The notes beneath the pieces were generated by a model, which did no database searches, was not told the origin of the DNA, and saw nothing but the letters and a program-made list of their open reading frames with translations. This document shows, one piece after another, positions 2,320-25,168 of a stretch of DNA of 32,000 nucleotides (the stretch's first letter is position 1; each line of letters begins with the position of its first letter). The stretch covers positions 360,001-392,000 of the forward strand of contig BPGA01000001.1 in NCBI GenBank assembly GCA_026002795.1. Direction: 5' to 3'. The DNA comes from Candidatus Saccharimonadota bacterium. GTDB taxonomy: Archaea; Nanobdellota; Nanobdellia; Pacearchaeales; GW2011-AR1. The translations under genes were made by a program, and so were the position numbers.

Positions 2320-2347
2320 AAGAATTAAAATATTAATATAAAAACAA

Positions 2348-2355: not shown

Positions 2356-2377
2356 GCATAGACTCCTCTTATTTAGA

Positions 2378-2450: not shown

Positions 2451-2490
2451 TTTTAAACACTTTAAAAGCATGAAAAAATATCTTGATAAA

Positions 2491-8013: not shown

Positions 8014-8601
8014 TTATCTTATTTTTAAGATTTTAAACAAAAACTCATCTGTAAGCTTTAAAATTTCTCTATCTTTTCCTTGAATAAAGACGCAATTATC
8101 TTTTTCAGTTATAGAAGTTTCATTAGAAATTTTAATAAATATAAAATTGTCAGAACAGGTTTTTTTAGGTAGACTTTCATCATTACACTCTTCATTCTCT
8201 AAACAAGCATTTTGCACTCTTTCAACAAGTCCAACAAGATTAACATACACCTCATTTTTTGCTGTTTCATCTTGTGAATAGATGTAAAGAGGTTTTTTTA
8301 GATATTTTTCAAAAGAAGAAATACCAACACCATAACTTTGGAAAGATTGTATTTCTAAAGGATTATAAGAGAAAACAAAATTTCCTAAAACCCATAGTCC
8401 GTTTCTATTTTCAAATTCATAATTTTTGTATTTTATTTTGTTTAAAGAGTTTGAAGAGCTATCTGTAGTTCCAGAATTGCTTTGTATTGCAAAACCAATT
8501 GTACCTAGAACCATCACTAAAAGTAGCACAACACCTAATATAATCTGGTTTCTTTTCCTTTTTCTTTCAGCCTCTTCTTTTGTAACAAGCTTTTTAATCA
8601 T
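8014..8601 (-). CDS. N-terminally anchored extracytoplasmic protein, unknown function (paralog of 7273-7902)
   Basis: Basic N-terminus plus TM (IILGVVLLLVMVLGTIGFAI). C-terminal block SNETSITEKDNCVFIQGKDREILKLTDEFLFKILKI shares the pattern SN.T.I...C..I..KD.EIL...F with the neighbour. AAGGAGA lies immediately before the ATG. Confidence 0.6.
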   Translation of the reverse strand: MIKKLVTKEEAERKRKRNQIILGVVLLLVMVLGTIGFAIQSNSGTTDSSSNSLNKIKYKNYEFENRNGLWVLGNFVFSYNPLEIQSFQSYGVGISSFEKYLKKPLYIYSQDETAKNEVYVNLVGLVERVQNACLENEECNDESLPKKTCSDNFIFIKISNETSITEKDNCVFIQGKDREILKLTDEFLFKILKIR

Positions 8602-8739: not shown

Positions 8740-11373
8740 TTAAGGTGATACTTTTGACATTGTTGATGTTCCACCGCTTCCAACAGTTCCTATGTATTTA
8801 GTACCTGCTGTTGTGTCTACTGATTCTGGTTGATTTATTAACCTTTGTGCAGCAGCAGCAGTTTCAGCTGCTTCATAACCAGCAACAAGTAGAGCTATCT
8901 TTCCACCAGTTCTAGAGAAGCTTTGTATTAAGAACTGGCCAGAACCAACACCTGTTGCAGAGGTCCATGCACTTCCACAGTATGCTCCACCGACCAAGCT
9001 AGCAGCAACAGTGTTTATGCAGCTTCCACCTACAACAACTAGATTCTTATTGCCAACAGATGCAACTTCATTATCAGTAACAAGCACTCCACCCAAAGAT
9101 TGAGTCTGATTTGTTGTGGATGTTCCACCAACAGAGTCTACAAAGAGCTTTGCATAAACCTGACTTGAAGGATAGGCTACTTCTGCTGTTTTTTGATCTG
9201 AATCACCAGCATCAACAGTAACCAAAGTACCCCACCAATCAACATACTTTGTGATGTCTGAATCACTCTGCAATGTTGCTGAGTACTGTGTTGGTGATGT
9301 TAGATATACACTATTGACACCAACGCCATCTGTACTTGTTCCATCACCAGGTTCTGTATCTATTACAACAACCTCATAATTGTTGTTGTCATCTTTTCCT
9401 TCAAATAAAACAACAGCTGGTGTTGTAATAACATTTGAAGCTCCTGGTGCTACCAAGTACAATTTTGTTTGGTTATCAGCGCCAGTACTCTGGAAACTGT
9501 AAGTTAATCTACCAACTGTTACATTAGCTGTATCATTGCCAGGAGCAGCGTTGGTAGTTAATAGATTTCCTCCAATACTCCAGGTGGTGTTTCCTGCTGT
9601 ACCATTTATAAGAGACGCAGTTACGCTAGTGTAACCATCTCCATCAGGGAAATTAAAGGTGCCTGCATCTGTACCACTACCATCCATATCAGCTAAGTTT
9701 AATGTTAATGGTTGGTAAAGCGCTACTAAGGCTCCTGTTTTTGTTTGAATTGTTGGATACACAACAAATGTAGCAGAATTTGCAGAATCTGAGGTTGGGT
9801 ATTTAATTCTTATTGAACCTCCAGATCCTGATCCACCACCAGGACCAGCATAAGTAATAGTGTACTCTTTTCCGCCCAACGAGAGTGTTGTTGTACCTTC
9901 TGTTGTAGGACTTCTTGCCCTTATAGTCTCACCAGAAAGAACATCCCTAAATTGTACAATATCACTTCCAGCTGTACTTGAGTCGTTAGATACAGAATCT
10001 ACCTGAAGTAAGTAGCCGTTCTCTTCATTACCCAAGACAACATACTGGTCTTCTGTGAGATTTGCCATTTCAATTACACTAATTGTAAAGTTGCTATCAT
10101 CTCCTAAAAAGAATTGATTACTTTGGTTGTGAGCCCAATCAAATGTCTTTGTATTACCCCTGTGATCTGTCATTGTTAGTGATAGTGTATCATCTCCTAC
10201 TACACCAACACTCAACGACTCTCTTGCTGGGTCATCTAAAGGAGAACTCAATCCAACAAAAGATAATTTAAATGTTCCAAATACAGGATCAACAAAACTC
10301 GATCCCGCAACAATAGCATCGTTGCTTGTACTTGGAGCAAAAACAGCTATAGCTATTTCAGTTGTTGAATTTGTGCCACCTACAATGTAAACTAATGTGC
10401 CATCAACAGAGGTATCGTCAGAACCAACTTTAACATTATTTCCATTGGAAAGAGTCACTTTTTGTGCTCCTGCAATAACTGTTGCAGATAGCTGGAAATT
10501 TGTTTCATCAGCATTCTTAACAGCAACCTCTAGCCCTTGGATCTTTTTAACATTACCCTCATCTACTTCAGCAGTACTGCTTCTTCCAGCACTATCAGTT
10601 ACTTTTAAAGTAGCTGCAGTATCAGAAGCTGAAACTAACTCAATTGTATATGTTGAGCCGCCAACAGTTACACTTGCACTTCTAGAATCGCTTGTTAAGG
10701 TAACTGTTTGAGCTTCTTTTAACAACACAATATTACTACTATCTGTTGCTGTTGAAACAGTAAAGGTCTGCCCAAACAACTTTATCTCCTGGTTTTCAGA
10801 ATCTGGGCTTGTAAAATTAACAGCCTTACTGAAAATTACAGATGCATTATACAATGGATTTGATGTTGCACTTGTACCCAAACTAACTCCAATTACAGGG
10901 TCATTACTTGTTTTAGGCTGCCTTGCAAAAATAACTTTTCCAGAGTTATCTCCACCAGCAGGAGCACCTGCCTGTAATTTTATAGTATGGGTTAATCTTG
11001 CATCAACATTTCCAGAAAAGGTTGTATCTGCAAGTAAGTTAGGCATTTCTGTTTTTGTAAGACTGCTTCTTGCAGTATTTAATGATGTATTAAGCCAGAT
11101 TCTTGTAGAGCTAGTGTCTAATGAAACAGCAGAACTACTTAAGGATACATCACCCCCACTGCTTACCAAGCCTTGCAACCAGTTTGCAATGTTTGTTGCT
11201 TGAGTTTGGTCAAGTCCTTGTGGAGCAGCTGAACCATATACAACTGCAAAATCACCTACACCATTTTGAACAAAAGGAGCAGGAGCAGCAGCTGCAGCAG
11301 CAACCCCAGCTGTCATACCAATCATTAAAGCACTTGTTGCAAGCGCTGATATTTGTCTAAAATTAAATTTCAT
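8740..11373 (-). CDS. S-layer protein (Methanococcales/Thermococcales-type S_layer_N / S_layer_C-like ends), 877 aa
   Basis: Signal peptide MKFNFRQISALATSALMIGMTAGVAAAAAA|PAP. The N-terminal block DFAVVYGSAAPQGLDQTQATNIANWL and the C-terminal block NLVVVGGSCINTVAASLVGG...GKIALLVAGYEAAETAAAAQRLI resemble the conserved ends of archaeal S-layer proteins. Thr/Ser/Gly/Ala/Val-rich, Lys-poor, many N-x-S/T sequons. Strong AGGAGGT upstream, dedicated terminator hairpin downstream, and clearly higher G+C than its neighbours. Confidence 0.75.
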   Translation of the reverse strand: MKFNFRQISALATSALMIGMTAGVAAAAAAPAPFVQNGVGDFAVVYGSAAPQGLDQTQATNIANWLQGLVSSGGDVSLSSSAVSLDTSSTRIWLNTSLNTARSSLTKTEMPNLLADTTFSGNVDARLTHTIKLQAGAPAGGDNSGKVIFARQPKTSNDPVIGVSLGTSATSNPLYNASVIFSKAVNFTSPDSENQEIKLFGQTFTVSTATDSSNIVLLKEAQTVTLTSDSRSASVTVGGSTYTIELVSASDTAATLKVTDSAGRSSTAEVDEGNVKKIQGLEVAVKNADETNFQLSATVIAGAQKVTLSNGNNVKVGSDDTSVDGTLVYIVGGTNSTTEIAIAVFAPSTSNDAIVAGSSFVDPVFGTFKLSFVGLSSPLDDPARESLSVGVVGDDTLSLTMTDHRGNTKTFDWAHNQSNQFFLGDDSNFTISVIEMANLTEDQYVVLGNEENGYLLQVDSVSNDSSTAGSDIVQFRDVLSGETIRARSPTTEGTTTLSLGGKEYTITYAGPGGGSGSGGSIRIKYPTSDSANSATFVVYPTIQTKTGALVALYQPLTLNLADMDGSGTDAGTFNFPDGDGYTSVTASLINGTAGNTTWSIGGNLLTTNAAPGNDTANVTVGRLTYSFQSTGADNQTKLYLVAPGASNVITTPAVVLFEGKDDNNNYEVVVIDTEPGDGTSTDGVGVNSVYLTSPTQYSATLQSDSDITKYVDWWGTLVTVDAGDSDQKTAEVAYPSSQVYAKLFVDSVGGTSTTNQTQSLGGVLVTDNEVASVGNKNLVVVGGSCINTVAASLVGGAYCGSAWTSATGVGSGQFLIQSFSRTGGKIALLVAGYEAAETAAAAQRLINQPESVDTTAGTKYIGTVGSGGTSTMSKVSP

Positions 11374-11856: not shown

Positions 11857-12207
11857 ATGCAGCTTATCAAATCAAAACAAAAAACACTTAGTTTAGAAAA
11901 CCATAAAGGAGCTTTCTCTTTATTTAAAAAAGCAGAAGAAGGGATAAATTTTAATGATATTTTTGAGTTAAGAAGTATCTTAAGCAACGAAAAAGCAAAA
12001 ATTTTGTACATTATAAAACACGAGAAGCCCGAATCTATTTATAAGCTTTCAAAGCTTTGTGGAAGAAGTTTTAGAGCTGTATTAAGAGATGTAAAAATGC
12101 TTGAAAAATTTGGGTTTATTAAAATTATTAAAGAAAAAAACAAGCTTAAAATAAGGCATAGGCCTGTTATTGATATAGAAAACCTTGTTTTGAACTTTAA
12201 AATATAA
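11857..12207 (+). CDS. Winged helix-turn-helix DNA-binding protein (COG4190/ArsR-like small regulator)
   Basis: Pattern LRSILSNEKAKILYIIKHEKPESIYKLSKLCGRSFRAVLRDVKMLEKFGFIKI (helix-turn-helix plus wing), followed by a C-terminal RPVIDIENLVLNFKI, as in small archaeal wHTH regulators. Confidence 0.6.
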   Translation: MQLIKSKQKTLSLENHKGAFSLFKKAEEGINFNDIFELRSILSNEKAKILYIIKHEKPESIYKLSKLCGRSFRAVLRDVKMLEKFGFIKIIKEKNKLKIRHRPVIDIENLVLNFKI

Positions 12208-12248: not shown

Positions 12249-12755
12249 TCAATAATAAATTTTAAAAGAAACTTTTAATGCTTGTTGAGAGGTTGTAAAA
12301 TCCTGTAAAGAGCCTTTATAATTGTTAGTTATATTTCCTTTTCTTATCTCTATTATGTTTTTTAAGCTACTTTGCATTAAAAACTCATAACCTTTTATTG
12401 GAGTGTTTTCAATTGGCCAGCTTGCATCTAAAATACCTTTTATTGTTTCATTTAAAACATCACAGCTTGGTCTTCCATCTAAACAATTTACTTCATCAAC
12501 ACACTGAAAAGCAAGCTTTCTTATTGTTAAATTTCCTGAAGAGTCTGAACAGCTTGTTGTATATTGAAGAGAAGCCTGAATAAAACTTTCAACCTCATAG
12601 CTTTCAACAGATTGTTTTGTTCCTGCTCTTAAAACAAAAAACAAAATTCCTAAAATGATTATTGAAACAAGTATAACAATAATAGCAAAACCAACCATCT
12701 CTTCTTGTGCTTTTTTCGGTTTTTTTAAAACTACTTTTTTTGTCAAATCTCGCAT
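12249..12755 (-). CDS. Class III signal peptide (type IV pilin-like) protein, 168 aa
   Basis: N-terminus MRDLTKKVVLKKPKKA|QEEMVGFAIIVILVSIIILGILFFVL: a basic stretch ending KKAQ followed by a hydrophobic helix. Four Cys in the ectodomain. Last gene of the seven-gene minus-strand cluster. Confidence 0.65.
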   Translation of the reverse strand: MRDLTKKVVLKKPKKAQEEMVGFAIIVILVSIIILGILFFVLRAGTKQSVESYEVESFIQASLQYTTSCSDSSGNLTIRKLAFQCVDEVNCLDGRPSCDVLNETIKGILDASWPIENTPIKGYEFLMQSSLKNIIEIRKGNITNNYKGSLQDFTTSQQALKVSFKIYY

Positions 12756-12786: not shown

Positions 12787-13311
12787 CTACTCTTTTAATT
12801 TATATGTTACAATGACCTTTGCAAGCTCACAAACATTTACTTGTCTAGCTTTTTCTTCATCATAATCTTTTCTACATAAAGCAGCAAAATTTGAAAAAGA
12901 TGTTCCTGAATCTGTGTTTTTTATTATGATGCTGTTGCAATTAGGATAATTTTCTTGAGTACATTCAATTTTTTCTTCAGATTTAGGAAAAACTTTTCTT
13001 ATTTCAATTCCAGAAACTTCCCAAAAATTTCCATACAGGTTTTGATATTTTTTTAGAGCCATGATTTTGTCAGAGTCTATACAATTTCCTTCACTCCTTT
13101 CAAAAGCATTTCCACAAGAAAACTCAGGAGAATTTGAGAGTTTAGAGACTAAAAGCAAAGCCTCTCTTTGCTCTACTAACTCAGAAGATCCTTTAATTCC
13201 AGAAAAAACAAAAGTTAAAAGAAAAAGACCAGCTATTGCAAAAAATAAGCTGACTGCAATTAACATAAATGCCATTTGTTGTATTTTTATTTGTGCTTTT
13301 TTTTCTTTCAT
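12787..13311 (-). CDS. Class III signal peptide (type IV pilin-like) protein, 174 aa
   Basis: N-terminus MKEKKA|QIKIQQMAFMLIAVSLFFAIAGLFLLTFVF. Six Cys in the ectodomain. 31-nt gap to the downstream gene. Confidence 0.65.
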   Translation of the reverse strand: MKEKKAQIKIQQMAFMLIAVSLFFAIAGLFLLTFVFSGIKGSSELVEQREALLLVSKLSNSPEFSCGNAFERSEGNCIDSDKIMALKKYQNLYGNFWEVSGIEIRKVFPKSEEKIECTQENYPNCNSIIIKNTDSGTSFSNFAALCRKDYDEEKARQVNVCELAKVIVTYKLKE

Positions 13312-13332: not shown

Positions 13333-14268
13333 TTACCAGAGTTTACATCTAGCTCTTTCATTTGATAATTCTGCATCATCAGCAAAATTCTTAACAAAAG
13401 TTAAATCATCTGAACTGTTGTAAGAGTTTAACGAGTTTATTAAAGGAAGCAGATTCACTTCAGAGATACATCCTTGATTTGCAAGAATGTTTGTCTTTTC
13501 ATTATAAATTCTTGAAAGAATTTCTGCTCTTTTCATAAGCCTTTTAACATTACACTCATAATCTTGTTTGTTGTTAGAGAATATGGCAGCATAAAGTAAA
13601 GCATCTGTTTCGTAATAAACTTCTTCTCTTTCTAAGCTAACTGTTTTTAAATTTTCATTTACGAAAACATTACAGCCAGTTCTTGATTTGAAACAGATTT
13701 TTTTTGAATTTGAAGGACAATCTTTAACAAATAAATTTTCTTGATTTAAATTTGAAATTTCTCTTTCTATGTTTTTAGGAGCATCTAAAAAACAATAGCT
13801 TTCATCAGAAGATGTAAAATACATTAAATCAGCTACTTTAAAAGGAAATTCAAAAGGCTTTGTAAAAACAAAAAATTTTTTTCCTTGAACAGTCTTATTT
13901 GAAAAAATATATTTATTTTCTGAGACTAAAGAAAAATCAGTTGAAACAAACTTGTTTGATATTTTTTGTTTTAGAGAGATTTCTTGTTTACCAAAATCAG
14001 TAAAACTAGAACAAGAAAAAATTAATTGGGTTTCAGTAGGCATATCAATAGAAATAGAGCTTCCAGATTCAGGACCAGATTCTAAAGGATTTAATAAAGA
14101 TTCAAACTCTTGAGAAAGCTCAGCAGAAACTTTTTCTTCACCAACATTAATGACTCTAGTTGAAGCATAGATAGCAATAAAAATTATTATTGCACCAACA
14201 ATTATTGCAAAAACCCATGCAAAAGGAAACTGAAGTTGTGCTTTTTTATTCAGTTTTTTTAACGACAT
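13333..14268 (-). CDS. Class III signal peptide (type IV pilin-like) protein, 311 aa
   Basis: N-terminus MSLKKLNKKA|QLQFPFAWVFAIIVGAIIIFIAIYAS. Eight Cys in the ectodomain. 21-nt gap to the downstream gene. Confidence 0.65.
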   Translation of the reverse strand: MSLKKLNKKAQLQFPFAWVFAIIVGAIIIFIAIYASTRVINVGEEKVSAELSQEFESLLNPLESGPESGSSISIDMPTETQLIFSCSSFTDFGKQEISLKQKISNKFVSTDFSLVSENKYIFSNKTVQGKKFFVFTKPFEFPFKVADLMYFTSSDESYCFLDAPKNIEREISNLNQENLFVKDCPSNSKKICFKSRTGCNVFVNENLKTVSLEREEVYYETDALLYAAIFSNNKQDYECNVKRLMKRAEILSRIYNEKTNILANQGCISEVNLLPLINSLNSYNSSDDLTFVKNFADDAELSNERARCKLW

Positions 14269-14322: not shown

Positions 14323-14829
14323 TCAAGCTCTCTCTAATGAAACTGTTCTATCTGTGAATTCTTTTAAAATTCTAATTTTAATTTTTCCGCCGTTAGAATT
14401 GATACAATAAGGATTTTCTTCAGAAGTTATTTCTTCAATATTTATGTTTTTTATTGAGGCAGAATCTATACCAGTGTGTTTTATAGGATAAAATACCATG
14501 TTTTCAGATCCTTCTTTTACTTTCTTTAATTCAACATAAATTAATGAGTCTTTTCCTTTTGAAGGAACTGAAAAATCAACAAAACAAACTTTTGTGTATT
14601 TTGTTGGAATGAAATACTCTCTTACTTCTGAGCTTTGTGAGCTTTTCCATGCAGTATCAACATCTGCTTGCAATTCTTTTATAAAATTTCCTGCTTTTGC
14701 ATTATCTTGAAACCTCAAAAAAGCCCTTATGCCATAAAAACCAAAAATTAGAAAGAAAATTATTAGAATTATTGAGATTATCATTCCAAAAGAAATCTGC
14801 ATTTGTGATTTTTTAGTTCTTTTTTTCAT
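14323..14829 (-). CDS. Class III signal peptide (type IV pilin-like) protein, 168 aa from ATG 14829
   Basis: N-terminus MKKRTKKS|QMQISFGMIISIILIIFFLIFGF. The track start at 14844 is a TTG; the ATG five codons downstream gives the same short basic leader as the paralogs. Two Cys. ATTAATAAA sits about 29 nt upstream of ATG 14829 and is a possible internal promoter. Confidence 0.65.
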   Translation of the reverse strand: MKKRTKKSQMQISFGMIISIILIIFFLIFGFYGIRAFLRFQDNAKAGNFIKELQADVDTAWKSSQSSEVREYFIPTKYTKVCFVDFSVPSKGKDSLIYVELKKVKEGSENMVFYPIKHTGIDSASIKNINIEEITSEENPYCINSNGGKIKIRILKEFTDRTVSLERA

Positions 14830-14980
14830 TATGATTAAAATCAAAAACAGTTTATTAATCTAACTTTTCATTGGCATTAACATAATAAATTTTTAAAATA
14901 AAAATAAGATTTATTTCAAAAGTTAAGGAAGTATAAATTTAATGAAGTGTACTTTCTTTTTACAAAAATTAAATTTTTTA

Positions 14981-17401
14981 TTAAACTTGGAAAGCTTTTG
15001 CAATTAAAGTACATCCGTTTACAGGAGGCTGATTTCCAAATTTATCTTGACATTTTATGTAGAAGTTTTTATTAGGATCCCAAGAAACAGTGTGTTCTAT
15101 GTTGTTTCTTGTTGTCATGTTTGATCCGTCTTCCATGTTGTATGTACACGCTATTTTGTCAGAAGTACTATAAACACAAGAAGATTCTTCATCAGTTATA
15201 ACTTTTAGATTATTTTGATCACTGAAAACTCTTACAATAACTGGCGGTTCTTTATCTACTTCAACTCTAAAGTTTATTTGCTTTGTGTCTATATTACCGC
15301 CTAAATCAATACAACTTACATAAAATGTATGATCTCCCTGAACAAGATTTAATTCTTGCTGATGTTTGTTAGTTCCTGTTGTGAGAAACTGAATATATGT
15401 TCCCTCTTCTCCAGTATCACTATAAGAGCATATTGCTTCTCCATTTTTGTAGCCAGCAAAAGTTTCTGCTTCTAGAGTTACTTTAACAACCCTTGTAGAA
15501 TCTTTTATTGTTGTTGAGTTAGGAGCTAGAGAAGAAATTATTAAAGGCCTTGTTCCAATTAAAGTATACTTGTATGATTGTTTGTTTACATTTCTTCTTG
15601 ACTCATTTTCAGTTCCTTTTAAATGAGGCTGGTCTAAACATCTAAAGTAAAATACATTATCTTGCCTGTCTTTTAATCCAGTTAAAGTTGTTTTACATTG
15701 ATATGCTTGTCTGTTGTTAAAGTTAAATAAATTTTGTTCACATTCCATGTTATTTTCCATGTTTTCATAACTCTGATCTAGTGTTGACCATTTGCATTCT
15801 GAAGGTTCATTTAGATAGGCACTAATGTTTATTTCTGTTGTATTACTAGATATTGGTTTACCGTTTGGAAGAGAAAAATCAAGAATTAGAGGAGGACTTG
15901 TGTCTGGACCCTGATCAACACAAAATCTAAAGACAATGTTGTTTAAATTAAAGTTTCCATTAACATCCTGACATCTAGTGTAAATAGTGAATTCTCCGTT
16001 GCTCTTTAATGTTATATCTTCAGATTGTAATGCTTCAGTACTTGGTATTTGTATTGTTTCAGAATGATTATATCTATTGAGAGAACTTCCTCCAAAGTAT
16101 CTAGACATGCTTTCAAAATCTCTTTTATTTACAACATCAAGCTTGCATTTTCCTGGTTCGTTTAAAGTAACGCCAAATCTTAAAGGAGTATAAGGCTGTA
16201 CACAACCATTAACATTATTTTCAGGAACAATTCTATAACCTCTGTCTGGAGGAGAGGTTTTGTCATCTGGAATATATTTATAACCTAAAGGTAAAACATC
16301 ATTCCAAGGAGTTATTACAGGAGGAGTTGTGTCATCTTTTCTTAACCAAGCGCATTTTTCTTCTGGAGTTCCTTTGTTTATAATTTCACAAGCCTGTCCA
16401 AGGCTTTTACATCTGTATTCAGTACAAGGAATATCTCCTTTATTACACTCTTCACAATTCTGGCCGCCTGTTACAGCATCCCATGGCAAACAAGAAAATT
16501 CAACAGCATCATAGCGCGTTTTTTTGAAGCTTAAAGCAAAAATAAGCGCTCCAACTACAGCTCCACCTATTAAAGCCACAACAGTACTTGCGCCAAATAC
16601 ACCTGCAAGAACTCCCTTTCCAAAAAAATAACCACCAGCTAATCCCCGAGAAAAAGCTTCTCTAAATTCAGGAGATCCTATTTTTAAAAAATTTAAGACA
16701 AATTTAGTTCCGAAATAAATTGCAACCGCTACTCCAGCATTTTCAATTAATCCTCCAAGAGTTGTCTTTCCAACTTTTGTTGATAAAATTCCTCCTAAAA
16801 ATCCTCCACCTGTCTGTTTTCCAGCTTCACCACCTTGTTGAGTATCTCCTTTTTTTGATTTGTTTAGTATTCTATCCAGCTCTCTTTGACCTATATCAGA
16901 TATTTTTCTTTCTGCAGCTTTTACAGGGATATCCGCTACAGTGGGTACTATACCTTTAATAACTGAATCTCTTTGCTTATTTCCAGAAGATTTTGTAAGA
17001 CTAGGACAGCTTTTTATTACAGAACTTTTTAAAGTGTACTGGCCGCTTCCTCCGCTAGCTTCAGCAGGATCATTGCAGAGTTGCTTTCTAAAACCCTCTC
17101 CTAACCAATTCCTACAAAAATAATTTATTGTATAAACTTTTCCTGTATAATCACCAGAAGGCTCTACACAATTACTATAACAAACAACATTATTTCCATC
17201 AATTCTCCAATAAGCTCCGCTACCAATTTGTACACATTGAGAAGTTTGTGTTTGCTGGGCGCTAACTAAATTATCTCTTGAAATTAAATAAGAAAAAGCA
17301 AAAATACTTAAAGTCATTAGAATTATTTCTAAAAAAACAACAAAATTCTTTTTAATTTTTTTATTAAACTTTTGTTTTTTATCAATTTTTTGAAATTTCA
17401 T
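14981..17401 (-). CDS. Large multi-domain envelope protein (806 aa): N-terminal anchor, Cys-rich modules, Gly-rich hydrophobic segment, four tandem beta-sandwich repeats
   Basis: N-terminal TM (FVVFLEIILMTLSIFAFSYLI). A 6-Cys module at aa 56-132. A Gly-rich hydrophobic region at aa ~186-292 (GGGFLGGILS...AGGYFFGKGVLAGVFGASTVVALIGGAVVGALIFALSF). A 7-Cys knot at aa 304-350. Four repeats of ~90-140 aa, each opening with a Pro-rich strand (TTPPVITP, TSPPLILD, TRPLIISS, EPPVIVRV) and ending with Y..C.D..GN (YTRCQDVNGN, YFRCLDQ, YVSCIDLGGN, YIKCQDKFGN). Confidence 0.7.
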   Translation of the reverse strand: MKFQKIDKKQKFNKKIKKNFVVFLEIILMTLSIFAFSYLISRDNLVSAQQTQTSQCVQIGSGAYWRIDGNNVVCYSNCVEPSGDYTGKVYTINYFCRNWLGEGFRKQLCNDPAEASGGSGQYTLKSSVIKSCPSLTKSSGNKQRDSVIKGIVPTVADIPVKAAERKISDIGQRELDRILNKSKKGDTQQGGEAGKQTGGGFLGGILSTKVGKTTLGGLIENAGVAVAIYFGTKFVLNFLKIGSPEFREAFSRGLAGGYFFGKGVLAGVFGASTVVALIGGAVVGALIFALSFKKTRYDAVEFSCLPWDAVTGGQNCEECNKGDIPCTEYRCKSLGQACEIINKGTPEEKCAWLRKDDTTPPVITPWNDVLPLGYKYIPDDKTSPPDRGYRIVPENNVNGCVQPYTPLRFGVTLNEPGKCKLDVVNKRDFESMSRYFGGSSLNRYNHSETIQIPSTEALQSEDITLKSNGEFTIYTRCQDVNGNFNLNNIVFRFCVDQGPDTSPPLILDFSLPNGKPISSNTTEINISAYLNEPSECKWSTLDQSYENMENNMECEQNLFNFNNRQAYQCKTTLTGLKDRQDNVFYFRCLDQPHLKGTENESRRNVNKQSYKYTLIGTRPLIISSLAPNSTTIKDSTRVVKVTLEAETFAGYKNGEAICSYSDTGEEGTYIQFLTTGTNKHQQELNLVQGDHTFYVSCIDLGGNIDTKQINFRVEVDKEPPVIVRVFSDQNNLKVITDEESSCVYSTSDKIACTYNMEDGSNMTTRNNIEHTVSWDPNKNFYIKCQDKFGNQPPVNGCTLIAKAFQV

Positions 17402-17415: not shown

Positions 17416-19077
17416 TTAACCTTTATAATCTTCACTCCATCTTACTATACTTCTATTTATGAAACCTTTTTGACCAAGATAATTTAGCTTTTCACCACAA
17501 TCTCCTAAAGAGATACACATATTCATTTTTTCAGCAAACCATTTGTTGTTGGTAGTTGCTTTTTTTATACTATCACCTTTTTTTAATCCTAAACACTCAC
17601 AATTCTCTTTACACTCCCAATCACCTAATAATCCTTTTTGAAATTTTACAAGGCAAGTATCACTAGCTATTGCGCATAATTCATCTGCATTTCCTTCTTC
17701 CCAAAAATTAAATCCAGGAGGATAAAGAGGAAGGCAGCTAGCTCCTTTTCTAGTGTCATCTTTTTTTCTCTCGACAAGCTCTCCTCTTTCATTTACAACT
17801 AAAGGATTTCCAGAATCATCTTTTAAAATACTCTGTCCTTCTACCCATTTACAATCTCTAACATCTCTATTTTCACAATCTTGCTTGCTTGTTTGTAAAA
17901 CACAATCATCCCATCTATTAGCAACACAGCCAGCTGACTTAAATCCAGGAACAACTTCTTCTTCTATACATACAGTATTTCTAAAAGGATCACAAAGAGT
18001 AACAGTAACCTCACCACTATAACAAGCAAATACAGCATGTTCAGACCCTGGAGAATTTTCATTTCCTTTTGTTCCAGTTGTTCCGCACCATCTTTCTCCG
18101 TGTTGATATGTTTTTCCTTGATATTTACAACTTAAATCAGCACAAACAAAATCACCATATGAAGGTTTTACAGGAGTTTGAGGATCGTTTCTTCTATATG
18201 CTTTACATAGACTTCCGAGCAAATAATTACAATTTCCACAGCTTGCAGAATTTGCGTTGCTTGAATCAGGATTACAACTTTCAGCTGGATCTTTTATGTA
18301 AGTCCAGTACTCTTGATTGTTAACTTTTGATGAATCATAAACATTAGCAATATTACCACAGCTATCAATAAAGTAAACTTCATCTTTATTTTCAACACAC
18401 GTTGTTTTTGAAGTTGGAGCGCATTGTGTTGCTAAAACTTCTGCCGTGCATAAAAGTCCTTCATGAAACTGAACTTTTGTGTCTGAGGAGGATTTTTTTT
18501 CAAGAGAGATACACTCTGATCTTGTTGTTCTCTTACAACTTCTCTCAAATCCTTTTTCTAAAACACAAGCTCCTTCAACATCAGGATTTGCGCTTAAAAT
18601 ACATTCACTTTCAGAGTTTATATCTGGTCTGAAAGTTGTATTAGTTCCATAATCAGAGGCTAAAGTTTTACATCTTATTTGATTTACAAATGCAGTGTTT
18701 TGTCCTATAAAGCAGCAACCACGTTTGCATTGTGGAATTTCATCTTCTTTTTTATCAAACCAAACTCCTCCAGAATTTTGACAAACAATCTGAGGAGTAT
18801 TTCCCGTACACTGGCCAGTATTTACATTTACACATGTTCCTAATTTACAATAAGATGTTGATTCACAAGAAGTTGGAGCTTTTCTGAATCCAGAAGCACA
18901 TTCTGCAGGAGGAGAAGGCTGACACCAATTTCCTGCTGTTGTTTTTTCACAACAAAACGATTGTTGTTGCTCTTGAGCAGAAATTCTCTTATTCAAGAAA
19001 ATGAAGAATAAAGCAAACACAAACAAAATTACAACTAAAAACACAAAACCTCTTTTGATTTGTTTTTTATCTAACAT
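17416..19077 (-). CDS. Cysteine-rich secreted/anchored protein (553 aa, 43 Cys by my count), unknown family
   Basis: The N-terminus MLDKKQIKRG|FVFLVVILFVFALFFIFL could be either a class III or an ordinary signal (ISA|QEQ). The rest has a Cys every ~12 residues, including CC pairs (SFCCEK, RGCCFI, ENCEC). I recognise no family motif. 14-nt and 16-nt gaps to the flanking cluster genes. Confidence 0.7.
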   Translation of the reverse strand: MLDKKQIKRGFVFLVVILFVFALFFIFLNKRISAQEQQQSFCCEKTTAGNWCQPSPPAECASGFRKAPTSCESTSYCKLGTCVNVNTGQCTGNTPQIVCQNSGGVWFDKKEDEIPQCKRGCCFIGQNTAFVNQIRCKTLASDYGTNTTFRPDINSESECILSANPDVEGACVLEKGFERSCKRTTRSECISLEKKSSSDTKVQFHEGLLCTAEVLATQCAPTSKTTCVENKDEVYFIDSCGNIANVYDSSKVNNQEYWTYIKDPAESCNPDSSNANSASCGNCNYLLGSLCKAYRRNDPQTPVKPSYGDFVCADLSCKYQGKTYQHGERWCGTTGTKGNENSPGSEHAVFACYSGEVTVTLCDPFRNTVCIEEEVVPGFKSAGCVANRWDDCVLQTSKQDCENRDVRDCKWVEGQSILKDDSGNPLVVNERGELVERKKDDTRKGASCLPLYPPGFNFWEEGNADELCAIASDTCLVKFQKGLLGDWECKENCECLGLKKGDSIKKATTNNKWFAEKMNMCISLGDCGEKLNYLGQKGFINRSIVRWSEDYKG

Positions 19078-19093: not shown

Positions 19094-19900
19094 TTAGTAT
19101 ATTGCTATTCTTGATGCTTCATGTCCTGGAGACCATTCTAAGCTTCTTGAAGCAAATTGAAATTTATCTCCGCTTCTTCTGTCTGTTATAATATAAACAA
19201 CTCCCTCTCTTTCTCTTGATATTTTTTCAACTTTAATCCACCTAAATATGTCCATGTAAATTGTAGGATCAGCATCTCCTAATGAAGCTTCAAACTCAAG
19301 TATACTATTAGCAATCCAAACAAGTTCATAAAGATTACTGTTCACAACAATCTCAAAATCTTTAAATGTTTGTGTGTTTCCTTTTGTTACAGTTATTTCA
19401 TTAGTAGTATTAACAATAATTCTTTTAGGCACAAGCCTGACATTTAAATTTCCTTTCTTAAAGTTAACATTGTAACCTCTATCTTCATAATTTCTCACGA
19501 GCTGATTAAAACAAAAATTAAACTCTTCTTCAATTTCTTTTTTAATTTCATTTTCTATATGACTCTGTAAAAAAGGTTTTTGAACAACACATGTTTTAAA
19601 ATCTTCTGCAGTGTAACAAGCATACTCTATTTTATAACCTTTATACTCTAGATAACCTTCTGGATTTGCGCTTCCTCCTTGTAAAGAGATAGTTTCAATA
19701 GCATTATTTAGAGATTCCTCAATACAATTTTGTATGAATGTCTGAGGATTTGTTTCTTCAAATCTTTCAGTTGTTCTTGCACTTCTATTTAAAAAATAAA
19801 TAGACAAAATTGCACCAACTGCTAAAATAGCTATTATAATAAAAATAGCAACCTGGCCTTTCTTAAAAAAAGAACCACCCCTTTTTAAAAAATTTCTCAT
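19094..19900 (-). CDS. Class III signal peptide (type IV pilin-like) protein, 268 aa; first gene of the cluster
   Basis: N-terminus MRNFLKRGGSFFKKG|QVAIFIIIAILAVGAILSIYFL, the textbook archaeal prepilin motif KG|Q followed by a hydrophobic helix. Four Cys. TTTTTAAAT sits about 30 nt upstream of the ATG. Confidence 0.7.
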   Translation of the reverse strand: MRNFLKRGGSFFKKGQVAIFIIIAILAVGAILSIYFLNRSARTTERFEETNPQTFIQNCIEESLNNAIETISLQGGSANPEGYLEYKGYKIEYACYTAEDFKTCVVQKPFLQSHIENEIKKEIEEEFNFCFNQLVRNYEDRGYNVNFKKGNLNVRLVPKRIIVNTTNEITVTKGNTQTFKDFEIVVNSNLYELVWIANSILEFEASLGDADPTIYMDIFRWIKVEKISREREGVVYIITDRRSGDKFQFASRSLEWSPGHEASRIAIY

Positions 19901-20788: not shown

Positions 20789-22072
20789 ATGGATAAAATA
20801 GAAAAAATCAAGAGAGTTGCTCTTATTTATTATTCAAGACCAGAAGTTCAAGAAGCAATATTCAATTTTTCTAAAAATAGAGAGTTTATTCCAAAGTATT
20901 TTGATATTTTCGGAAAAAGACCAGATTCTCTTCAGTACAAAGGAGATATTTTTGAGTTTGTTAAGAAAGGAGCTACAAGCTTCCACTGTTCTCAAGAATT
21001 GTGGAAAAATCCTTTAGACTTGTCTACTGAAAAAACAGAAAAAGAGCTAAATGAAATGAGAATTGGATGGGATCTTGTTCTTGATGTTGATTCTAAGTAT
21101 TTTGATTATAGTAAAATTTTAGCAGAATTAATAATTGAAGTTTTAAGATTTTATGGGGTTAATAATTTCCTATTAAAGTTTTCTGGAAGCAAAGGATTTC
21201 ATATCATTATTCCTTGGAAAGCTTTTCCAGAAGAGCTTAATGGAATAAAAACAAAAGATATGTTTCCTGAATGGCCTAGAATAATTACTAAATTTTTAAT
21301 TGAAACAACTAAACCAAAACTTACAGAAAGAATTTCAAAACTTTTGAATTTAAGCAAGCACGTTCTTGATAGAGAAGCAATAAAAAAAGTTATGCCTGAT
21401 CTTATTCTTGTTTCATCAAGACATTTATTTAGAGCGCCTTATTCTTTACACGAAAAAACTATGTTAGCTAGTGTTGTCATAAATCCGGAAGAGATAAAAA
21501 ACTTTGACTTAAAAGACGCAAACCCATTAAACCTAAAAATTAAAAAATTTAATGATTTTAATCAGAATGTCAAAGAAGGAGAAGCAAAAAAACTTCTCAT
21601 TGAAGCTTTAGATTTTTTTAAATCAGAAAATCCAGATTTTAGTTTAGAAAAAAACGAAAAAACAGAAGATTTTAGAAAAATAAAAATAGAAAAACTTTCT
21701 GAGGAAATTTTACCTCCAACAATTAAAAAAATTCTTCAAGGAATGGAAGACGGCCGGAAAAGATCTTTATTTATTCTTATAAATTTCTTTAGAGCAATTG
21801 GCTTAGAAAAAAATGAAATTGAAAATATTATTTTTGAATGGAATAAAAGAAACAAAGTTCCATTGAAAACAGGTTATATAAAAGCTCAGCTTTCTTGGAG
21901 TTATAGAAACAAAATAGTGCCCCCGCCTAACTATGATAAGGATTATTATTTAGGTATAGGCATAATACCAACAGAAGAAGAAATGAGACTAAAAAACCCG
22001 GTAAATTTTGTTTCGAGAGTTGTAAAGAGTTTAAATAAAAATTCTAAAGGCAGTAAAAGAAAATCAAAATAG
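20789..22072 (+). CDS. priS: DNA primase catalytic subunit PriS fused to a PriL-CTD-like helical domain
   Basis: AEP motifs I (WDLVLDVDS), II (FSGSKGFHIIIPW) and III (RHLFRAPYSLHEKT). From about aa 305 (nt ~21701) comes LPPTIKKILQGMEDGRKRSLFILINFFRAIGLEKNEIENIIFEWNKRN...YIKAQLSWSYRNKIVPPPNY. This resembles the PriL C-terminal domain but lacks its Cys ligands. The protein ends in a Lys-rich tail. Confidence 0.85.
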   Translation: MDKIEKIKRVALIYYSRPEVQEAIFNFSKNREFIPKYFDIFGKRPDSLQYKGDIFEFVKKGATSFHCSQELWKNPLDLSTEKTEKELNEMRIGWDLVLDVDSKYFDYSKILAELIIEVLRFYGVNNFLLKFSGSKGFHIIIPWKAFPEELNGIKTKDMFPEWPRIITKFLIETTKPKLTERISKLLNLSKHVLDREAIKKVMPDLILVSSRHLFRAPYSLHEKTMLASVVINPEEIKNFDLKDANPLNLKIKKFNDFNQNVKEGEAKKLLIEALDFFKSENPDFSLEKNEKTEDFRKIKIEKLSEEILPPTIKKILQGMEDGRKRSLFILINFFRAIGLEKNEIENIIFEWNKRNKVPLKTGYIKAQLSWSYRNKIVPPPNYDKDYYLGIGIIPTEEEMRLKNPVNFVSRVVKSLNKNSKGSKRKSK

Positions 22073-22115: not shown

Positions 22116-23912
22116 ATGAAAAAAAATTTGATTTTTGTTTTAATGTTTGTTGTAGTTTTAAGCTTATCTTTTATTAGTTCCCAATTATTAAACTCTAGTG
22201 AGCAACAAAAAAGGGTAAATCAGGCTTATTCTTGTTTGGATAGTAAGATAAAAGGAAAATGCTCTTCTCTTTCAATAGAAGAAAGAATTTTTTCTTTTTT
22301 ATCAACAGGCCAGTGCAGACAAGAGATGATTTCTTCTTCTAAAAACGGAGAGTGCTGGCCACAAACAACAGGAGAGTGTAAAATTAAAACAACTGCCCAA
22401 GCAATTCTTTCATTAGAAAATAACAATGTAGATTCTACAAAACCAAAAAATTGGCTTCTTAATAAAACAAAAAATCCGACAGAACTTGTTTGGTATCTTC
22501 AAATTGATAGTAATGAAGCAACTTCTTGTACAATAGGCTATAGAGGTCAGACATACAATGTAAATATAAATGAAAATAAAATTTTAAGTAATAATGCTGG
22601 TGCATGTTTAATAGTTTCTGAAAACGGATATTGGTTTCAAATTTCTTCTTCTTGTTATAATGAAGAGATAACCATTTCTTGCGATAAAGATTTTTTAACT
22701 TCTCTTTTATTTAAAAAAACAACTTCTTCAACAATAAATGTTCTTCCAGAAGTTTCTTCTGCATCAGCAGGAGGAACTACAAGAGAAAAAGTAGAATCAT
22801 TATGTTTTGTTGAAGGAAACTCTTGTAATTATGAAGGGAGTCTTTGGGCTACTCTTGCTCTAGCTTCTTTGGGAGAAGAGACAAAACAGTATATGCCTTA
22901 TTTAGTTGCTTTAGCTGATGAAAATCCAAAGTTTCTTCCAGAATCTTTTTTGACATATCTTACAGGAGATTCTTCTTATAAAGCTGCTTTAATCTCAAAA
23001 CAAAAAGAAAGTAGTTATTGGTTAGAATCTGGAGACAAATTTTATGATACAGCTCTTGCTCTTTATCCTTTGCAAAAAGAAAGCTTAGAAGAAGTTGAAA
23101 ATTCTAAAAATTGGCTTTTAACAAATCAAGATAGAAACGGTTGTTGGCAGGATAGCTTAAAAAATACTGCTTTTATTTTGTTTTCAGTATGGCCTAAAAA
23201 ATTAGTTAGTAGTGATGGAAGCGGTGTTTCAGATTGCGAGTCATCTGGTTTTTATTGTACAACAATAGCTGGTTGTGAAGGAGAAATTTTATCAGAATAT
23301 AGTTGTCCTTCTTCGTACCAGTGTTGTAATAAACAACCAGTTCAAACAACCTGCTCTGAAGAAGGAGGAATTGTTTGCTCTCAAAATGAGAGATGTGTTG
23401 GTGGTACAACATTAGGCACTCCTGATTTAAGACTTGGAGAAAGTTGTTGTATTGGAGGGAGTTGTCAAGAGGCAGAAGAAGAAAGAAGTCTTTCAGATTG
23501 CGAACTTCAAGGAGGTGTTTGTAGAGCTAACTCTTGCGAAGAAAATGAAGAAGAAAAGGCATTTTCATGTAATTTACAATCTGAAGTTTGTTGTATGATA
23601 AAAATTAAAGAAAAGAAAAGTAATTTGCTATTTTGGATTCTTTTCATACTTGTTTTGTTAGTTGCATTAGGAATAATCTTCAGAGAAAAATTAAGGCATT
23701 ATTGGTTTAAATTCAGGGATAGTTTTGGAAAAAAGAAAGGACCCCCAACAACACCTCCTAAATACCCAAGTACTCCAACACAACCTTACCCTGTGCATAG
23801 AACAATAGAAAAACATTATGTTCCTGTTCAGAAAAAAATGCCATTAAAAAAAACATCTTCTCATGAGGAATTAGATGAAGTCTTAAAAAAACTTAAAGAA
23901 ATGGGTAAATAA
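22116..23912 (+). CDS. Type I membrane surface protein: alpha/alpha-toroid (prenyltransferase/terpene-cyclase QW-like) ectodomain, three Cys-rich modules, TM, Pro-rich cytoplasmic tail
   Basis: Signal peptide MKKNLIFVLMFVVVLSLSFISS. QW-like repeats KNWLLTNQDRNGCWQDSLKNTAFILFSVWP, SSKNGECWPQTTGECKIKTTAQAILSL and KQKESSYWLESGDKFYDTALALYPL. Three C-x6-7-C-x4-5-C...CC modules at aa 374-493 (nt 23235-23594). TM LLFWILFILVLLVALGIIF. Tail KGPPTTPPKYPSTPTQPYPV. Confidence 0.65.
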   Translation: MKKNLIFVLMFVVVLSLSFISSQLLNSSEQQKRVNQAYSCLDSKIKGKCSSLSIEERIFSFLSTGQCRQEMISSSKNGECWPQTTGECKIKTTAQAILSLENNNVDSTKPKNWLLNKTKNPTELVWYLQIDSNEATSCTIGYRGQTYNVNINENKILSNNAGACLIVSENGYWFQISSSCYNEEITISCDKDFLTSLLFKKTTSSTINVLPEVSSASAGGTTREKVESLCFVEGNSCNYEGSLWATLALASLGEETKQYMPYLVALADENPKFLPESFLTYLTGDSSYKAALISKQKESSYWLESGDKFYDTALALYPLQKESLEEVENSKNWLLTNQDRNGCWQDSLKNTAFILFSVWPKKLVSSDGSGVSDCESSGFYCTTIAGCEGEILSEYSCPSSYQCCNKQPVQTTCSEEGGIVCSQNERCVGGTTLGTPDLRLGESCCIGGSCQEAEEERSLSDCELQGGVCRANSCEENEEEKAFSCNLQSEVCCMIKIKEKKSNLLFWILFILVLLVALGIIFREKLRHYWFKFRDSFGKKKGPPTTPPKYPSTPTQPYPVHRTIEKHYVPVQKKMPLKKTSSHEELDEVLKKLKEMGK

Positions 23913-23944: not shown

Positions 23945-25168
23945 ATGGGAAAAATTTTATCTTTTTTGTTTATAGCTTTTTTATTTGCAATTTTTTTTGT
24001 AAATAGCATTTCTGCAGTCGAAATTAGTTTTTTTAAAGAGTCAAAAAATTTTTCTCAAGGAGAGACTATAATTTTTAAGGTGTCTGGAAATTTTATAGAT
24101 CAAATTACAAGAGAAAACATACTTTTTTTTAAAGATTCAGTAAGAATTCCTTTTGAATTTAATGTTGTTAAAATCTCTAATGATTTTTATGTTTATGCTT
24201 CTAGTTTATTTAAAAACGAAGGAAATTATTCTTTTGAAATAATTGATGTTAGATATTATAAAGGAATTGTTGTTAGTGATGAAAAAATTAAAGAAAATTT
24301 CACAATAAATTCAAAAATAGCTGACTTTTCTATAAATCCAGCAGCAATTAACACAAATACAAATTTCTTTATTGAAATAACTAATTTAAAAGATAAGAAA
24401 ATTGATATAGAAATTAAAAAACCAAAAGAAATTTTTTTAGAAGAAAGTAAAATATCTTTAAATTCAGGAGCAACAAGAAAATTAAACTTTATCCCATTAG
24501 AAAATTCTCAAGGACTTTACTTTATAGAGTTTAAATCTTCTTCAACAAATTACAAAATACCTATTTTTATAAAACAAGAAAACAAAACAACAAAAGAAGA
24601 AAAATTCGAATTCCAACCTAAAGAGATAAGCATTTTAATGCCAACAAATAGCACTTCAAAAAGAATTATCTATTTAGTTAATCTAGGAGAGAAAATTGAA
24701 GAAATCAATTTTCTTTTTTTAGGAAATGCCTCTTCTTTTTTAAAATTAGTTCCAGACAAAATAACTGAACTTGAAGAGAACGAAACAAAAAAAATAGAAC
24801 TTTTAATAAACTCGGATTTTGAAGAAAAAAATCTTTCAGCAACAATTCTCGCAAATTCTAATTCATCTTCTTCAGAAATTAAAGTTTTTTTAAGCTTTAT
24901 TAAAGATTTTGTCGAGAATGAAACAGAAGAAAATGCATCAAAAATAGTTAATTGTAAAGATATTAACGGAGAGATATGCAAAGAAGGATTTAAGTGTACT
25001 GGAGAGATAACTTATGTTAAAGATGGACCTTGTTGTTTATCTCCTGCTGTTTGCAAAGAAATTGAAAAAAAATCAAACAAAGGAAAGGTTATTGGTTGGG
25101 TAATTTTAATAGTGATAATTCTAATGGTTATTTTATTTTATAAAAAGTATAAAGGTGTTCGAAGATAA
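23945..25168 (+). CDS. Secreted beta-rich surface protein with one Cys-rich juxtamembrane module and a C-terminal TM anchor
   Basis: Signal peptide MGKILSFLFIAFLFAIFFVNSISA|VE. Asn/Lys/Ile-rich ectodomain with many N-x-S/T sequons. Module CKDINGEICKEGFKCTGEITYVKDGPCCLSPAVC (nt 24953-25054) matches the modules of the upstream gene. Terminal VIGWVILIVIILMVILFYKKYKGVRR. Confidence 0.6.
   Translation: MGKILSFLFIAFLFAIFFVNSISAVEISFFKESKNFSQGETIIFKVSGNFIDQITRENILFFKDSVRIPFEFNVVKISNDFYVYASSLFKNEGNYSFEIIDVRYYKGIVVSDEKIKENFTINSKIADFSINPAAINTNTNFFIEITNLKDKKIDIEIKKPKEIFLEESKISLNSGATRKLNFIPLENSQGLYFIEFKSSSTNYKIPIFIKQENKTTKEEKFEFQPKEISILMPTNSTSKRIIYLVNLGEKIEEINFLFLGNASSFLKLVPDKITELEENETKKIELLINSDFEEKNLSATILANSNSSSSEIKVFLSFIKDFVENETEENASKIVNCKDINGEICKEGFKCTGEITYVKDGPCCLSPAVCKEIEKKSNKGKVIGWVILIVIILMVILFYKKYKGVRR

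Follow-up and report, generated by a model that had tools for sequence, protein, structure and literature searches.

A helix-knot module and an invariant four-domain Ig-like rod in a protein from a probable envelope operon of Nanoarchaeota-type DPANN archaea

The surface layer (S-layer) of Sulfolobales is held by SlaB, a membrane-anchored stalk (10.1101/2023.10.27.564410). A different envelope complex, that of arCOG02884/DUF1616, combines a few transmembrane (TM) helices with an external immunoglobulin (Ig)-like domain near S-layer-like genes (Makarova, PMC5898192) and is defined as a system by MoxR ATPase, vWA and DUF4350 proteins (PMC5898192). Here, we analyse T806, a protein of 806 amino acids (aa) encoded by the third gene of a seven-gene operon in a 32,000-nucleotide stretch of DNA (hereafter the window; contig BPGA01000001.1, positions 360,001 to 392,000; GC content ~28%), which was deposited as Candidatus Saccharimonadota bacterium and is placed by GTDB in the archaeal Pacearchaeales. 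The open reading frame (ORF) of T806 occupies nucleotides (nt) 14981..17401 on the (-) strand, starts with ATG and includes the stop codon at 14981-14983. In our best reading, T806 forms a structural part of an envelope complex found across the lineage of Nanoarchaeota-type DPANN archaea, and is no free-standing adhesin. The more specific proposal that we favour, tentatively, is that it serves as a fixed-length envelope strut and as an assembly core.

The likeness to SlaB is a functional analogy only: in both cases, a membrane-anchored rod of beta-sandwiches would stand beside the gene of an S-layer protein that lacks an anchor. In SlaB, one TM helix at the C-terminus is combined with a coiled coil, whereas T806 carries its hydrophobic module N-terminal to the rod, lacks both of these elements and shares no detectable sequence similarity with SlaB. 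The verbal description of the arCOG02884/DUF1616 complex would also fit T806, but we rejected the identity of the locus with this arCOG01314/arCOG02884 'secretion complex' because PF07760 is unmatched and MoxR, vWA and DUF4350 are absent from the window and from related loci. Like Big_13-type stalks, T806 has four consecutive beta-sandwiches with Pro-rich linkers and a YxxCxDxxGN strand in each domain; unlike them, it remains below threshold in Pfam, its domain number is fixed rather than variable, every domain is Cys-paired (disulfide-type), and a helix and knot module stands in front. Two of its helices (B and C, below) are hydrophobic, rich in small residues and arranged in zipper registers, as in the glycine-zipper segments (GxxxGxxxG) of proteins that form channels or oligomers and of the Pfam Gly-zipper and Rick_17kDa 2TM families, but in T806 the helices number three, measure 19-26 residues and are joined to a Cys knot. 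Finally, the locus resembles those of PilY1/minor-pilin and GspHIJK tips in having about five pilin-like genes and a large non-pilin protein but no ATPase. Unlike PilY1, T806 lacks a beta-propeller or vWA domain and has hydrophobic helices of its own, and its locus shows neither a match to pilin hidden Markov models (HMMs) nor machinery genes nearby. The locus joins familiar parts (Ig repeats, pilin-like signals, an S-layer) to undescribed ones (the helix-knot module, the invariant architecture, the operon).

An invariant Ig-like rod behind a conserved helix-knot module

A homology search with T806 returned at least 148 relatives, with E values down to 1e-235 and every one annotated 'hypothetical', so that its gene is no chance ORF. 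The named relatives are metagenome-assembled genomes (MAGs) of Pacearchaeota, Woesearchaeota or 'Nanoarchaeota', and at least 569 T806-type loci, of the Pacearchaeota/Woesearchaeota type, occur in species-representative genomes. A profile of the helix and knot region matched 1,407 representative clusters at 50% identity (342 at E <=1e-30), and each of the 150 best matches listed spans nearly the whole module. Conservation within the family is restricted to the N-terminal helix and aa ~214-806. The part that follows the module measures 433-446 aa (interquartile range) and always consists of four domains; the part that precedes it ranges from 74 to 1,103 aa. Sequence searches of Pfam, NCBIfam and PDB with T806, the module, its upstream partner cys553 and the operon neighbours gave sub-threshold noise except for S_layer_C, PCNA and similar matches, and a literature search found no paper describing the T806 family or its operon. 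The archaeal operon is also present on four contigs recorded as bacteria (L014, L029, L036 and L060), under the labels Patescibacteria, Alphaproteobacteria, 'Candidatus Paceibacterota' and Pseudomonadota. The 'Candidatus Paceibacterota' contig spans 379 kb and carries PCNA and the full cluster. These contigs are likely mis-binned or mislabelled MAGs.

We modelled T806 with AlphaFold2 (AF2) from an alignment of 87 sequences (mean predicted local distance difference test, pLDDT, of 84.8). The model has a helix at aa 9-43, a small folded head at aa 55-131, disorder at aa 137-213, three helices at aa 214-239, 244-265 and 273-291 (pLDDT 85-93), a knot made of two short helices and a hairpin at aa 316-352, and four beta-sandwiches at aa 357-806 (pLDDT 93-98). 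An original prediction, made from the DNA of the window, had arrived at this domain order. It had placed a Gly-rich hydrophobic region at aa 186-292 (nt 16526-16846) and four repeats at aa 357-806 (nt 14984-16333), and had counted 6 Cys at aa 56-132, 7 at aa 304-350 and 4, 4, 2 and 4 in the repeats; the coordinates, the counts and the strings that it quoted are all correct.

The repeats correspond to the Ig-like domains D1 (aa 357-497; 15911..16333 (-); 4 Cys; N-glycosylation sequons N445 and N462), D2 (aa 498-617; 15551..15910 (-); 4 Cys; sequon N520), D3 (aa 618-717; 15251..15550 (-); two invariant Cys, 658 and 697) and D4, the distal tip (aa 718-806; 14984..15250 (-); 4 Cys). The earlier proposal that they are tandem beta-sandwich repeats is borne out, with an Ig/FN3-like fold, by the AF2 model, by hhalign, which relates D1-D4 to each other with probabilities of 57-97% (E 1e-4 to 3e-10), and by Foldseek, with which the full model matched tandem Ig/FN3 ectodomains of the PDB (E 1e-14, probability 1.0), all of them generic arrays. 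Big_13 (PF19077) aligned to aa 670-716 (D3) at 18.3 bits, below its gathering cutoff of 27, and about 25 homologs of T806 carry a precomputed PF19077 match. The conserved part of the protein contains 21 Cys (4.1%), versus 0.6% Cys in cytoplasmic proteins of the same genome. A composition classifier trained on the proteins of the window, with which all 14 cytoplasmic proteins score negative, assigns D1-D4 to the secreted type (+0.08 to +0.12), also when Cys is left out. The C-terminal part of T806 is thus an invariant rod of four Ig-like domains behind a 7-Cys knot. At ~4 nm for each of the four Ig domains, the rod would be ~15 nm long. The invariant domain number suggests a structural ruler rather than a typical adhesin, and the label of adhesin, under which the original prediction had discussed T806, is too simple for one subunit of a conserved operon whose stalk has a fixed number of domains.

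The module in front of the rod begins with helix A (aa 214-239; 16685..16762 (-)), which is moderately hydrophobic (dG ~ +4 to +6), rich in small residues and has a conserved K/Q/R at position 233. Helix B (aa 244-265; 16607..16672 (-)) is weakly hydrophobic and includes the zipper [GAS]253-x3-G257-x3-[GA]261. The B-C loop (aa 266-272; 16586..16606 (-)) is short in T806, with a family median of 21 aa, and is aromatic/Gly-rich. Helix C (aa 273-292; 16526..16585 (-)), with the zipper [GAS]276-x3-G280-x3-[AG]284, is the most hydrophobic segment; Kyte-Doolittle (KD) values are 2.5 for aa ~264-292 and a weaker 1.4 for aa 218-241. A conserved charged stretch of the YKKEKK type directly follows helix C, within the charged linker and 7-Cys knot (aa 293-356; 16334..16525 (-); Cys at aa 304-350). 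The knot has the pattern CxPWxAPxGGxxCExCNx4-6PCSEYRCKSLGQACx11C, its Cys count is odd in 98% of the members, and it always occurs together with the three helices. Modelled alone, the module gives the same up-down-up bundle A-B-C. Small residues occupy columns 253, 257 and 261 of helix B in 85, 83 and 56 of the 87 sequences (G257 in 79/87), and columns 276, 280 and 284 of helix C in 63, 79 and 80 of them (G280 in 73/87). Both helices therefore show the conserved (G/A/S)xxxGxxx(G/A/S) on a hydrophobic helix that defines a glycine zipper. The hydrophobic, glycine-zipper-like character that the original prediction ascribed to this segment is real and conserved in the family, and the role in oligomerisation that it raised is viable. 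Its Gly-rich region has to be divided, however: aa 214-292 are indeed helical, with three helices and not two, whereas aa 137-213 are a disordered tether.

The HMMs of Gly-zipper_Omp, Gly-zipper_YMGG and Rick_17kDa_Anti gave no match in aa 212-362 at E <=10, and a profile search of the PDB found no match to the module. The best Foldseek hits of its model had E values of 1.1 (PDB) and 0.8 (BFVD), none <=0.001, and in these two databases its structural likeness to pore-forming toxins, holins or fusogens does not exceed chance. The helix-knot module is undescribed, with no known relative in Pfam, PDB, BFVD or the literature, and the three helices of the glycine-zipper segment form with the knot one inseparable conserved module.

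The N-terminus (aa 1-48; 17258..17401 (-)) has a Lys-rich start (net charge ~ +4 across the family), a conserved 21-residue hydrophobic helix and then V-S-A|Q. The helix (aa 21-41), already recognised in the original prediction, is strongly hydrophobic (KD 2.2), and its conserved residues are A22, Q/E25 (E25 in T806), I26, L29 and A35. A V/I-x-A site is found a few residues before a CCEKT motif or before the head in both the split and the fused forms of the protein (see below), and its spacing to the CCEKT motif is equal in the secreted neighbour cys553 and in the fused paralogs. This shared site favours cleavage of the N-terminal helix by signal peptidase. Aa 1-48 are a Sec signal peptide or a signal anchor, with cleavage likely. 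The helix is unusually strongly conserved and co-occurs only with helices A-C, which is why it may have a retained role. We discarded the co-variation of E25 and K233 as a sign that the N-terminal helix packs on helix A, since the trend is weak and confounded by phylogeny. We also rejected a class-III (prepilin) signal for T806 itself: the relevant segment, KKIKKN-FVVFLEIIL, has no G/A at -1, only ~20-30% of the family have Gly at the would-be class-III position, and the conserved V-S-A|Q fits signal peptidase I.

The N-terminal helix is followed by a 6-Cys head module (aa 49-135; 16997..17257 (-)), which is folded (pLDDT 74-92) and has its six Cys within aa 56-132. The head is unconserved in the family and common to a few close relatives only; other homologs carry in its place, e.g., LysM (in some family heads at 25.1 bits, above the Pfam cutoff of 20.9), EF-hand-like loops or a 550-aa Cys-rich domain. 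A Gly-rich tether (aa 136-213; 16763..16996 (-)), disordered with pLDDT <50, connects the head to helix A.

Glycosylation sequons and membrane topology

N-glycosylation in Archaea targets N-x-S/T sequons at the outer face of the membrane, so that segments in which sequons are selected for or against can be taken as external. Across the family, the head and tether hold 9 sequons where 88±7 are expected, a ~10-fold depletion, and the reverse motif [ST]xN is present at a normal 94. In the B-C loop, 313 distinct sequences contain 0 sequons for 31.6±5.1 expected, and five control patterns, among them [ST]xN, QxS/T, NxA/G and N[ST], are normal. Since whole-domain controls deviate (observed-to-expected ratio, O/E, of 0.44-2.46), the count was elsewhere restricted to Asn in variable columns. 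On this basis, the helix region has 3 sequons for 18 expected and D4 has 14 for 43.5, a ~3- to 5-fold depletion unlike the O/E of D1, D2 and D3 (1.12, 0.86 and 1.15). Two sequons are conserved, N445 (D1) in 72/87 sequences and N520 (D2) in 42/87. The conserved, co-varying pair N445/N462 is suggestive, but we did not retain it as proof of glycosylation because clade structure explains it. T806 is exported, and its head/tether, B-C loop and D4 carry a signature of external exposure; the head, the loop and the stalk look external. This supports the earlier claim that both Cys-rich flanks of the helical segment are extracytoplasmic.

A Hessa-type sum, which is independent of position and therefore yields approximate dG figures, gives ~ -0.3 for the N-terminal helix and a median of +1.1 for helix C (-1.2 in T806), which is TM-grade, and marginal values for helices A (+4.4) and B (+5.3). 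Within T806, only the N-terminal helix and helix C are thus TM-grade, which bears on the crossings of the 3-TM topology put forward in the original prediction. As it was formulated, that topology, one of several models, is not supported: it needs a cytoplasmic B-C loop, and the complete lack of sequons suggests an external one. The other simple arrangements have their own misfits: two or four TM spans put the Cys-rich stalk inside, and an A-B hairpin leaves the most hydrophobic helix unspanned. Positive-inside reasoning was rejected as a decider because the charges are nearly balanced (the A-B loop is net acidic and the segment after helix C has +0.5). No simple topology of T806 accounts for all the data; what is left is a non-canonical burial of helix C or a bundle located outside the bilayer within a protein core.

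The split partner cys553 and the operon

The gene preceding T806, at a distance of 14 nt from its start, encodes cys553 (17416..19077 (-)), a secreted 43-Cys protein in which an ordinary signal peptide (ISA|Q) is the sole hydrophobic segment. Over ~530 aa, cys553 is 36-40% identical (E 1e-98 to 1e-126) to the N-terminal half of paralogs of ~1,200-1,350 aa (e.g., L001:3983-7567 and L004:2199-5867), the C-terminal half of which has the architecture of T806. These fused paralogs indicate that cys553 and T806 are the split form of one protein, and that whatever precedes helix A is extracytoplasmic. Most relatives have both a fused copy, accompanied by its own pil268 copy, and a split pair; the window has the split pair only. 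The number of Cys is odd in 97% of the conserved T806 parts (n=255; 21 or 23 Cys) and in 90% of the solo cys553 proteins (n=49), and even in 71% of the fused paralogs (n=14). This parity is consistent with one unpaired Cys per partner, which would join T806 and cys553 by an intermolecular disulfide; homodimers are the alternative.

The operon is co-directional and runs from 19900 down to 12249 in the order pil268, cys553, T806, pil173, pil311, pil174 and pil168, with intergenic gaps of 14-136 nt in the window. This order is collinear in 84 loci (~80 species) wherever the contig is long enough, within the wider arrangement PCNA > pil268 > [long T806 paralog > pil268 >] cys553 > T806 > pil173 > pil311 > pil174 > pil168 > (divergent HTH) S-layer > m195 > m209. 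The first gene, pil268 (19094..19900 (-)), encodes a class-III (prepilin)-like N-terminus, KKGQ-VAIFIIIAIL (family consensus KRGQVTIFIIIA). The downstream genes pil173 (14323-14844 (-)), pil311 (13333-14268 (-)), pil174 (12787-13311 (-)) and pil168 (12249-12755 (-)) each specify a family-specific [KR]-[GAS]-Q/F start, a hydrophobic helix and a Cys-paired ectodomain. The conserved N-termini of the five families are KRGQVTIFIIIA, KRGQMQISFGMIFSIIL, KRGFLQISFAWLFAII, KKAQMKIQQMAFML and KxGQEEMVGFALII, and class-III motifs are defined here by FlaFind-type patterns. By these motifs, the N-termini of the five small proteins resemble archaeal class-III (prepilin) signals. A search with pil311 found 626 'hypothetical' relatives and nothing further. 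The mechanically called ORF of pil173 starts at TTG (LILIIMKKRTKKSQ...), and its orthologs point to an ATG five codons downstream (MKKRTKKSQMQISFG...). Looking for a secretion ATPase, we found no recurrent Walker-A ORF of >=200 aa within ±10 kb of the 84 loci.

Beyond the operon lies the gene of an S-layer-like protein of 877 aa (8740..11373 (-); Pfam S_layer_C, 41.5 bits), which carries a signal peptide and lacks a membrane anchor at its C-terminus. In 43 loci the gene is syntenic with the operon, the divergent helix-turn-helix (HTH) gene (11857-12207 (+)) lying between them. The flanking genes are archaeal: PCNA, a fused PriS-PriL primase, NusG/L11, SepF and the S-layer-like protein. Sequon frequencies vary among these proteins. 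Sequons are depleted in pil268, cys553, pil173, pil311 and pil174 (O/E 0.37-0.50), as expected for buried interfaces, and enriched in pil168 (1.64) and m209 (2.16); the S-layer protein and the cytoplasmic PCNA orthologs (1.09) are neutral. This pattern fits a complex with buried and exposed subunits, and the operon probably builds part of the cell envelope.

Several other features of the window deserve mention. GC content rises to 0.38-0.40 at 9000-11000, versus ~0.27 elsewhere, which coincides with the S-layer gene and is probably due to high expression of a gene rich in Ala/Gly/Thr codons, not to foreign DNA. The S-layer gene is followed in 24-31 loci by those of two small single-pass proteins, m195 (8014-8601 (-)) and m209 (7273-7902 (-)); the conserved N-terminus of m195, KRKRNQ and then hydrophobic residues, is reminiscent of the [KR]-x-Q of the pilin-like genes. 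Downstream of the S-layer block are genes for a small polytopic protein (6600-7127 (+)), relatives of which have a faint Exosortase_EpsH match, a CARDB protein with a C-terminal TM segment and basic tail (4165-5847 (+)) and a PAP2 phosphatase (5934-6530 (-)). The polytopic protein may be archaeosortase-like, and the three together may form an envelope-processing island. On the other side of the operon, a 427-aa PriS-PriL fusion (20789-22072 (+)) matches the families of the small and large primase subunits; many relatives keep it in synteny with PCNA and the envelope operon. Next come a secreted 598-aa protein (22116-23912 (+)) with 30 Cys, few sequons and only a weak match to the A2M TED domain, similar to a secreted 623-aa protein near the cluster in ~10 other loci, and then a secreted 407-aa protein (23945-25168) with 11 sequons for 4.5 expected. 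A 126-aa TTG-initiated ORF (2221-2601 (-)) that overlaps tRNA-Pro(TGG) (2378-2450 (+)) on the opposite strand is almost certainly spurious.

Competing readings and significance

In the reading that we favour, the hydrophobic helix module would provide an anchor and a core for assembly, situated in the cell membrane or on its surface, and its small-xxx-small faces would bundle with the N-terminal helix of T806 itself, with further copies of T806 or with the N-terminal helices of the pilin-like partners. The rigid, partly glycosylated D1-D3 rod (~15 nm) would be a fixed-length spacer across the sub-S-layer space, and the glycan-free D4 tip would dock on a partner, with the S-layer protein that lacks an anchor and the ectodomains of the pilin-like proteins as candidates. 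The variable head, free of glycans and flexibly tethered, would provide, with the 43-Cys cys553, a variable binding surface, cys553 being probably held through the single unpaired Cys conserved in each protein.

Several points weigh against this reading. The link between D4 and the S-layer is putative. Synteny also spans the unrelated PCNA and primase genes, so that the adjacency of the S-layer gene is by itself a weak argument and may be inherited gene order, and a divergently transcribed regulator separates this gene from the operon. The pilin-like character of the partners is suggested by motifs only, and none of the five has a Pfam or NCBIfam class-III or pilin match, including searches with the N-terminal peptides at E <=10. 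The sequon and Cys-parity statistics count related sequences and not independent events. Lastly, helix C is TM-grade, has a stop-transfer-like Lys-rich C-terminal flank and stands in an up-down-up bundle; hydrophobicity and the positive-inside rule mildly favour two or four spans with the stalk inside, in conflict with the sequon data, which place both ends of helix C outside.

An alternative that we consider unlikely is that the locus encodes the tip or priming complex of a type IV filament, with five minor pilins and with T806 (together with cys553) as a large tip adhesin that is itself no pilin, comparable to PilY1 with FimU/PilVWX or to GspHIJK of the type II secretion system; the ATPase, platform protein and major pilin would then be encoded elsewhere. 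The helices of T806 would lie in the filament core outside the membrane, which would make all flanks look external, and an external signature is indeed seen on all loops of the helix module. Five families with [KR]-[GA]-Q/F and a hydrophobic N-terminus, of which pil268 fits the archaeal prepilin motif, combined with one large protein and no ATPase, mirror bacterial minor-pilin operons. The variable heads, including LysM and EF-hand-like loops, also speak for this alternative, as does the observation that archaeal type-IV-filament loci often hold multi-Ig accessory or adhesin proteins (10.64898/2026.04.22.720090). However, the 84 loci show no secretion ATPase, platform protein or prepilin peptidase within ±10 kb, class-III and pilin HMMs match no partner, and sequons are scarce in the pilin-like proteins, in contrast to exposed archaeal pilins and archaellins. 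T806 itself has no G/A at the would-be cleavage site (KKN-FVVFLE) and no PilY1-type beta-propeller or vWA domain, and a fixed stalk length is atypical for adhesins.

Improbable in our judgement is a device directed at a host membrane, an idea raised in the original prediction. The zipper module, shielded on the symbiont surface, would insert on contact or form a pore or bridge by oligomerisation; the Ig rod would act as spacer, and the variable head would recognise the host. The organisms are presumably obligate episymbionts, dependent on contact with a host (PMC11329633), and the conserved zippers in two of the three helices, the external glycan-free signature on all helix flanks, including both sides of helix C, and the absence of relatives of the module among ordinary Pfam/PDB membrane anchors would suit such a function. 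Yet no pore-forming toxin, holin or fusogen resembles the module in structure more than by chance (best Foldseek E ~1), helix C (dG ~ -1 in T806) should be caught by the producer's own membrane during Sec export, three short helices offer no obvious soluble pre-insertion state, and the gene sits in a conserved structural operon and in no variable effector locus.

We give very little credence to a conventional 4-TM (or 2-TM) protein with the knot and the four Ig-like domains in the cytoplasm (N-terminal helix in->out, A out->in, B in->out, C out->in; head and B-C loop outside), which reconciles the external B-C loop with the hydrophobicity, with the Lys-rich flank that follows helix C and with the up-down-up bundle of the AF2 model, and agrees with the neutral sequon frequency of D1-D3 at variable positions and the co-occurrence of the N-terminal helix with helices A-C expected of a four-helix bundle, but is opposed by 21 conserved Cys arranged as pairs in beta-sandwich domains, by a secreted-type composition even without Cys, by sequon depletion specific to D4 and conserved sequons in D1/D2, by the likeness to extracellular Ig-like families (Big_13; DUF4625 and Y_Y_Y in homologs), by an odd-Cys complementarity that involves the secreted cys553, and by the extracytoplasmic nature of every operon partner.

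Few uncultured archaea are as abundant as Pacearchaeota and Woesearchaeota, and how they build their envelope or contact a host is entirely unknown; the products of this conserved operon, which is flanked by S-layer genes, are all annotated as hypothetical. The reading of T806 as a structural envelope subunit supplies parts that can be tested: an invariant four-Ig 'ruler', a helix-knot module without relatives, a fusion-supported partner with a complementary unpaired Cys, and a map of glycan-free surfaces. Sequon depletion could also be used as an in silico probe of topology and interfaces in uncultured archaea, and here it conflicts with the classical topology rules. A bolder version, which we hold to be doubtful, is that the operon encodes an undescribed envelope machine of Nanoarchaeota-type DPANN archaea in which T806 and the pilin-like helices form a hydrophobic core outside the cytoplasmic membrane. 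If so, this core would be a short pseudopilus-like pillar or a host-membrane-inserting device, it would carry the 43-Cys protein, linked by a disulfide, together with a hypervariable head that is free of glycans and serves host contact, and it would be the apparatus for attachment or bridging that has long been sought in these uncultured symbionts.

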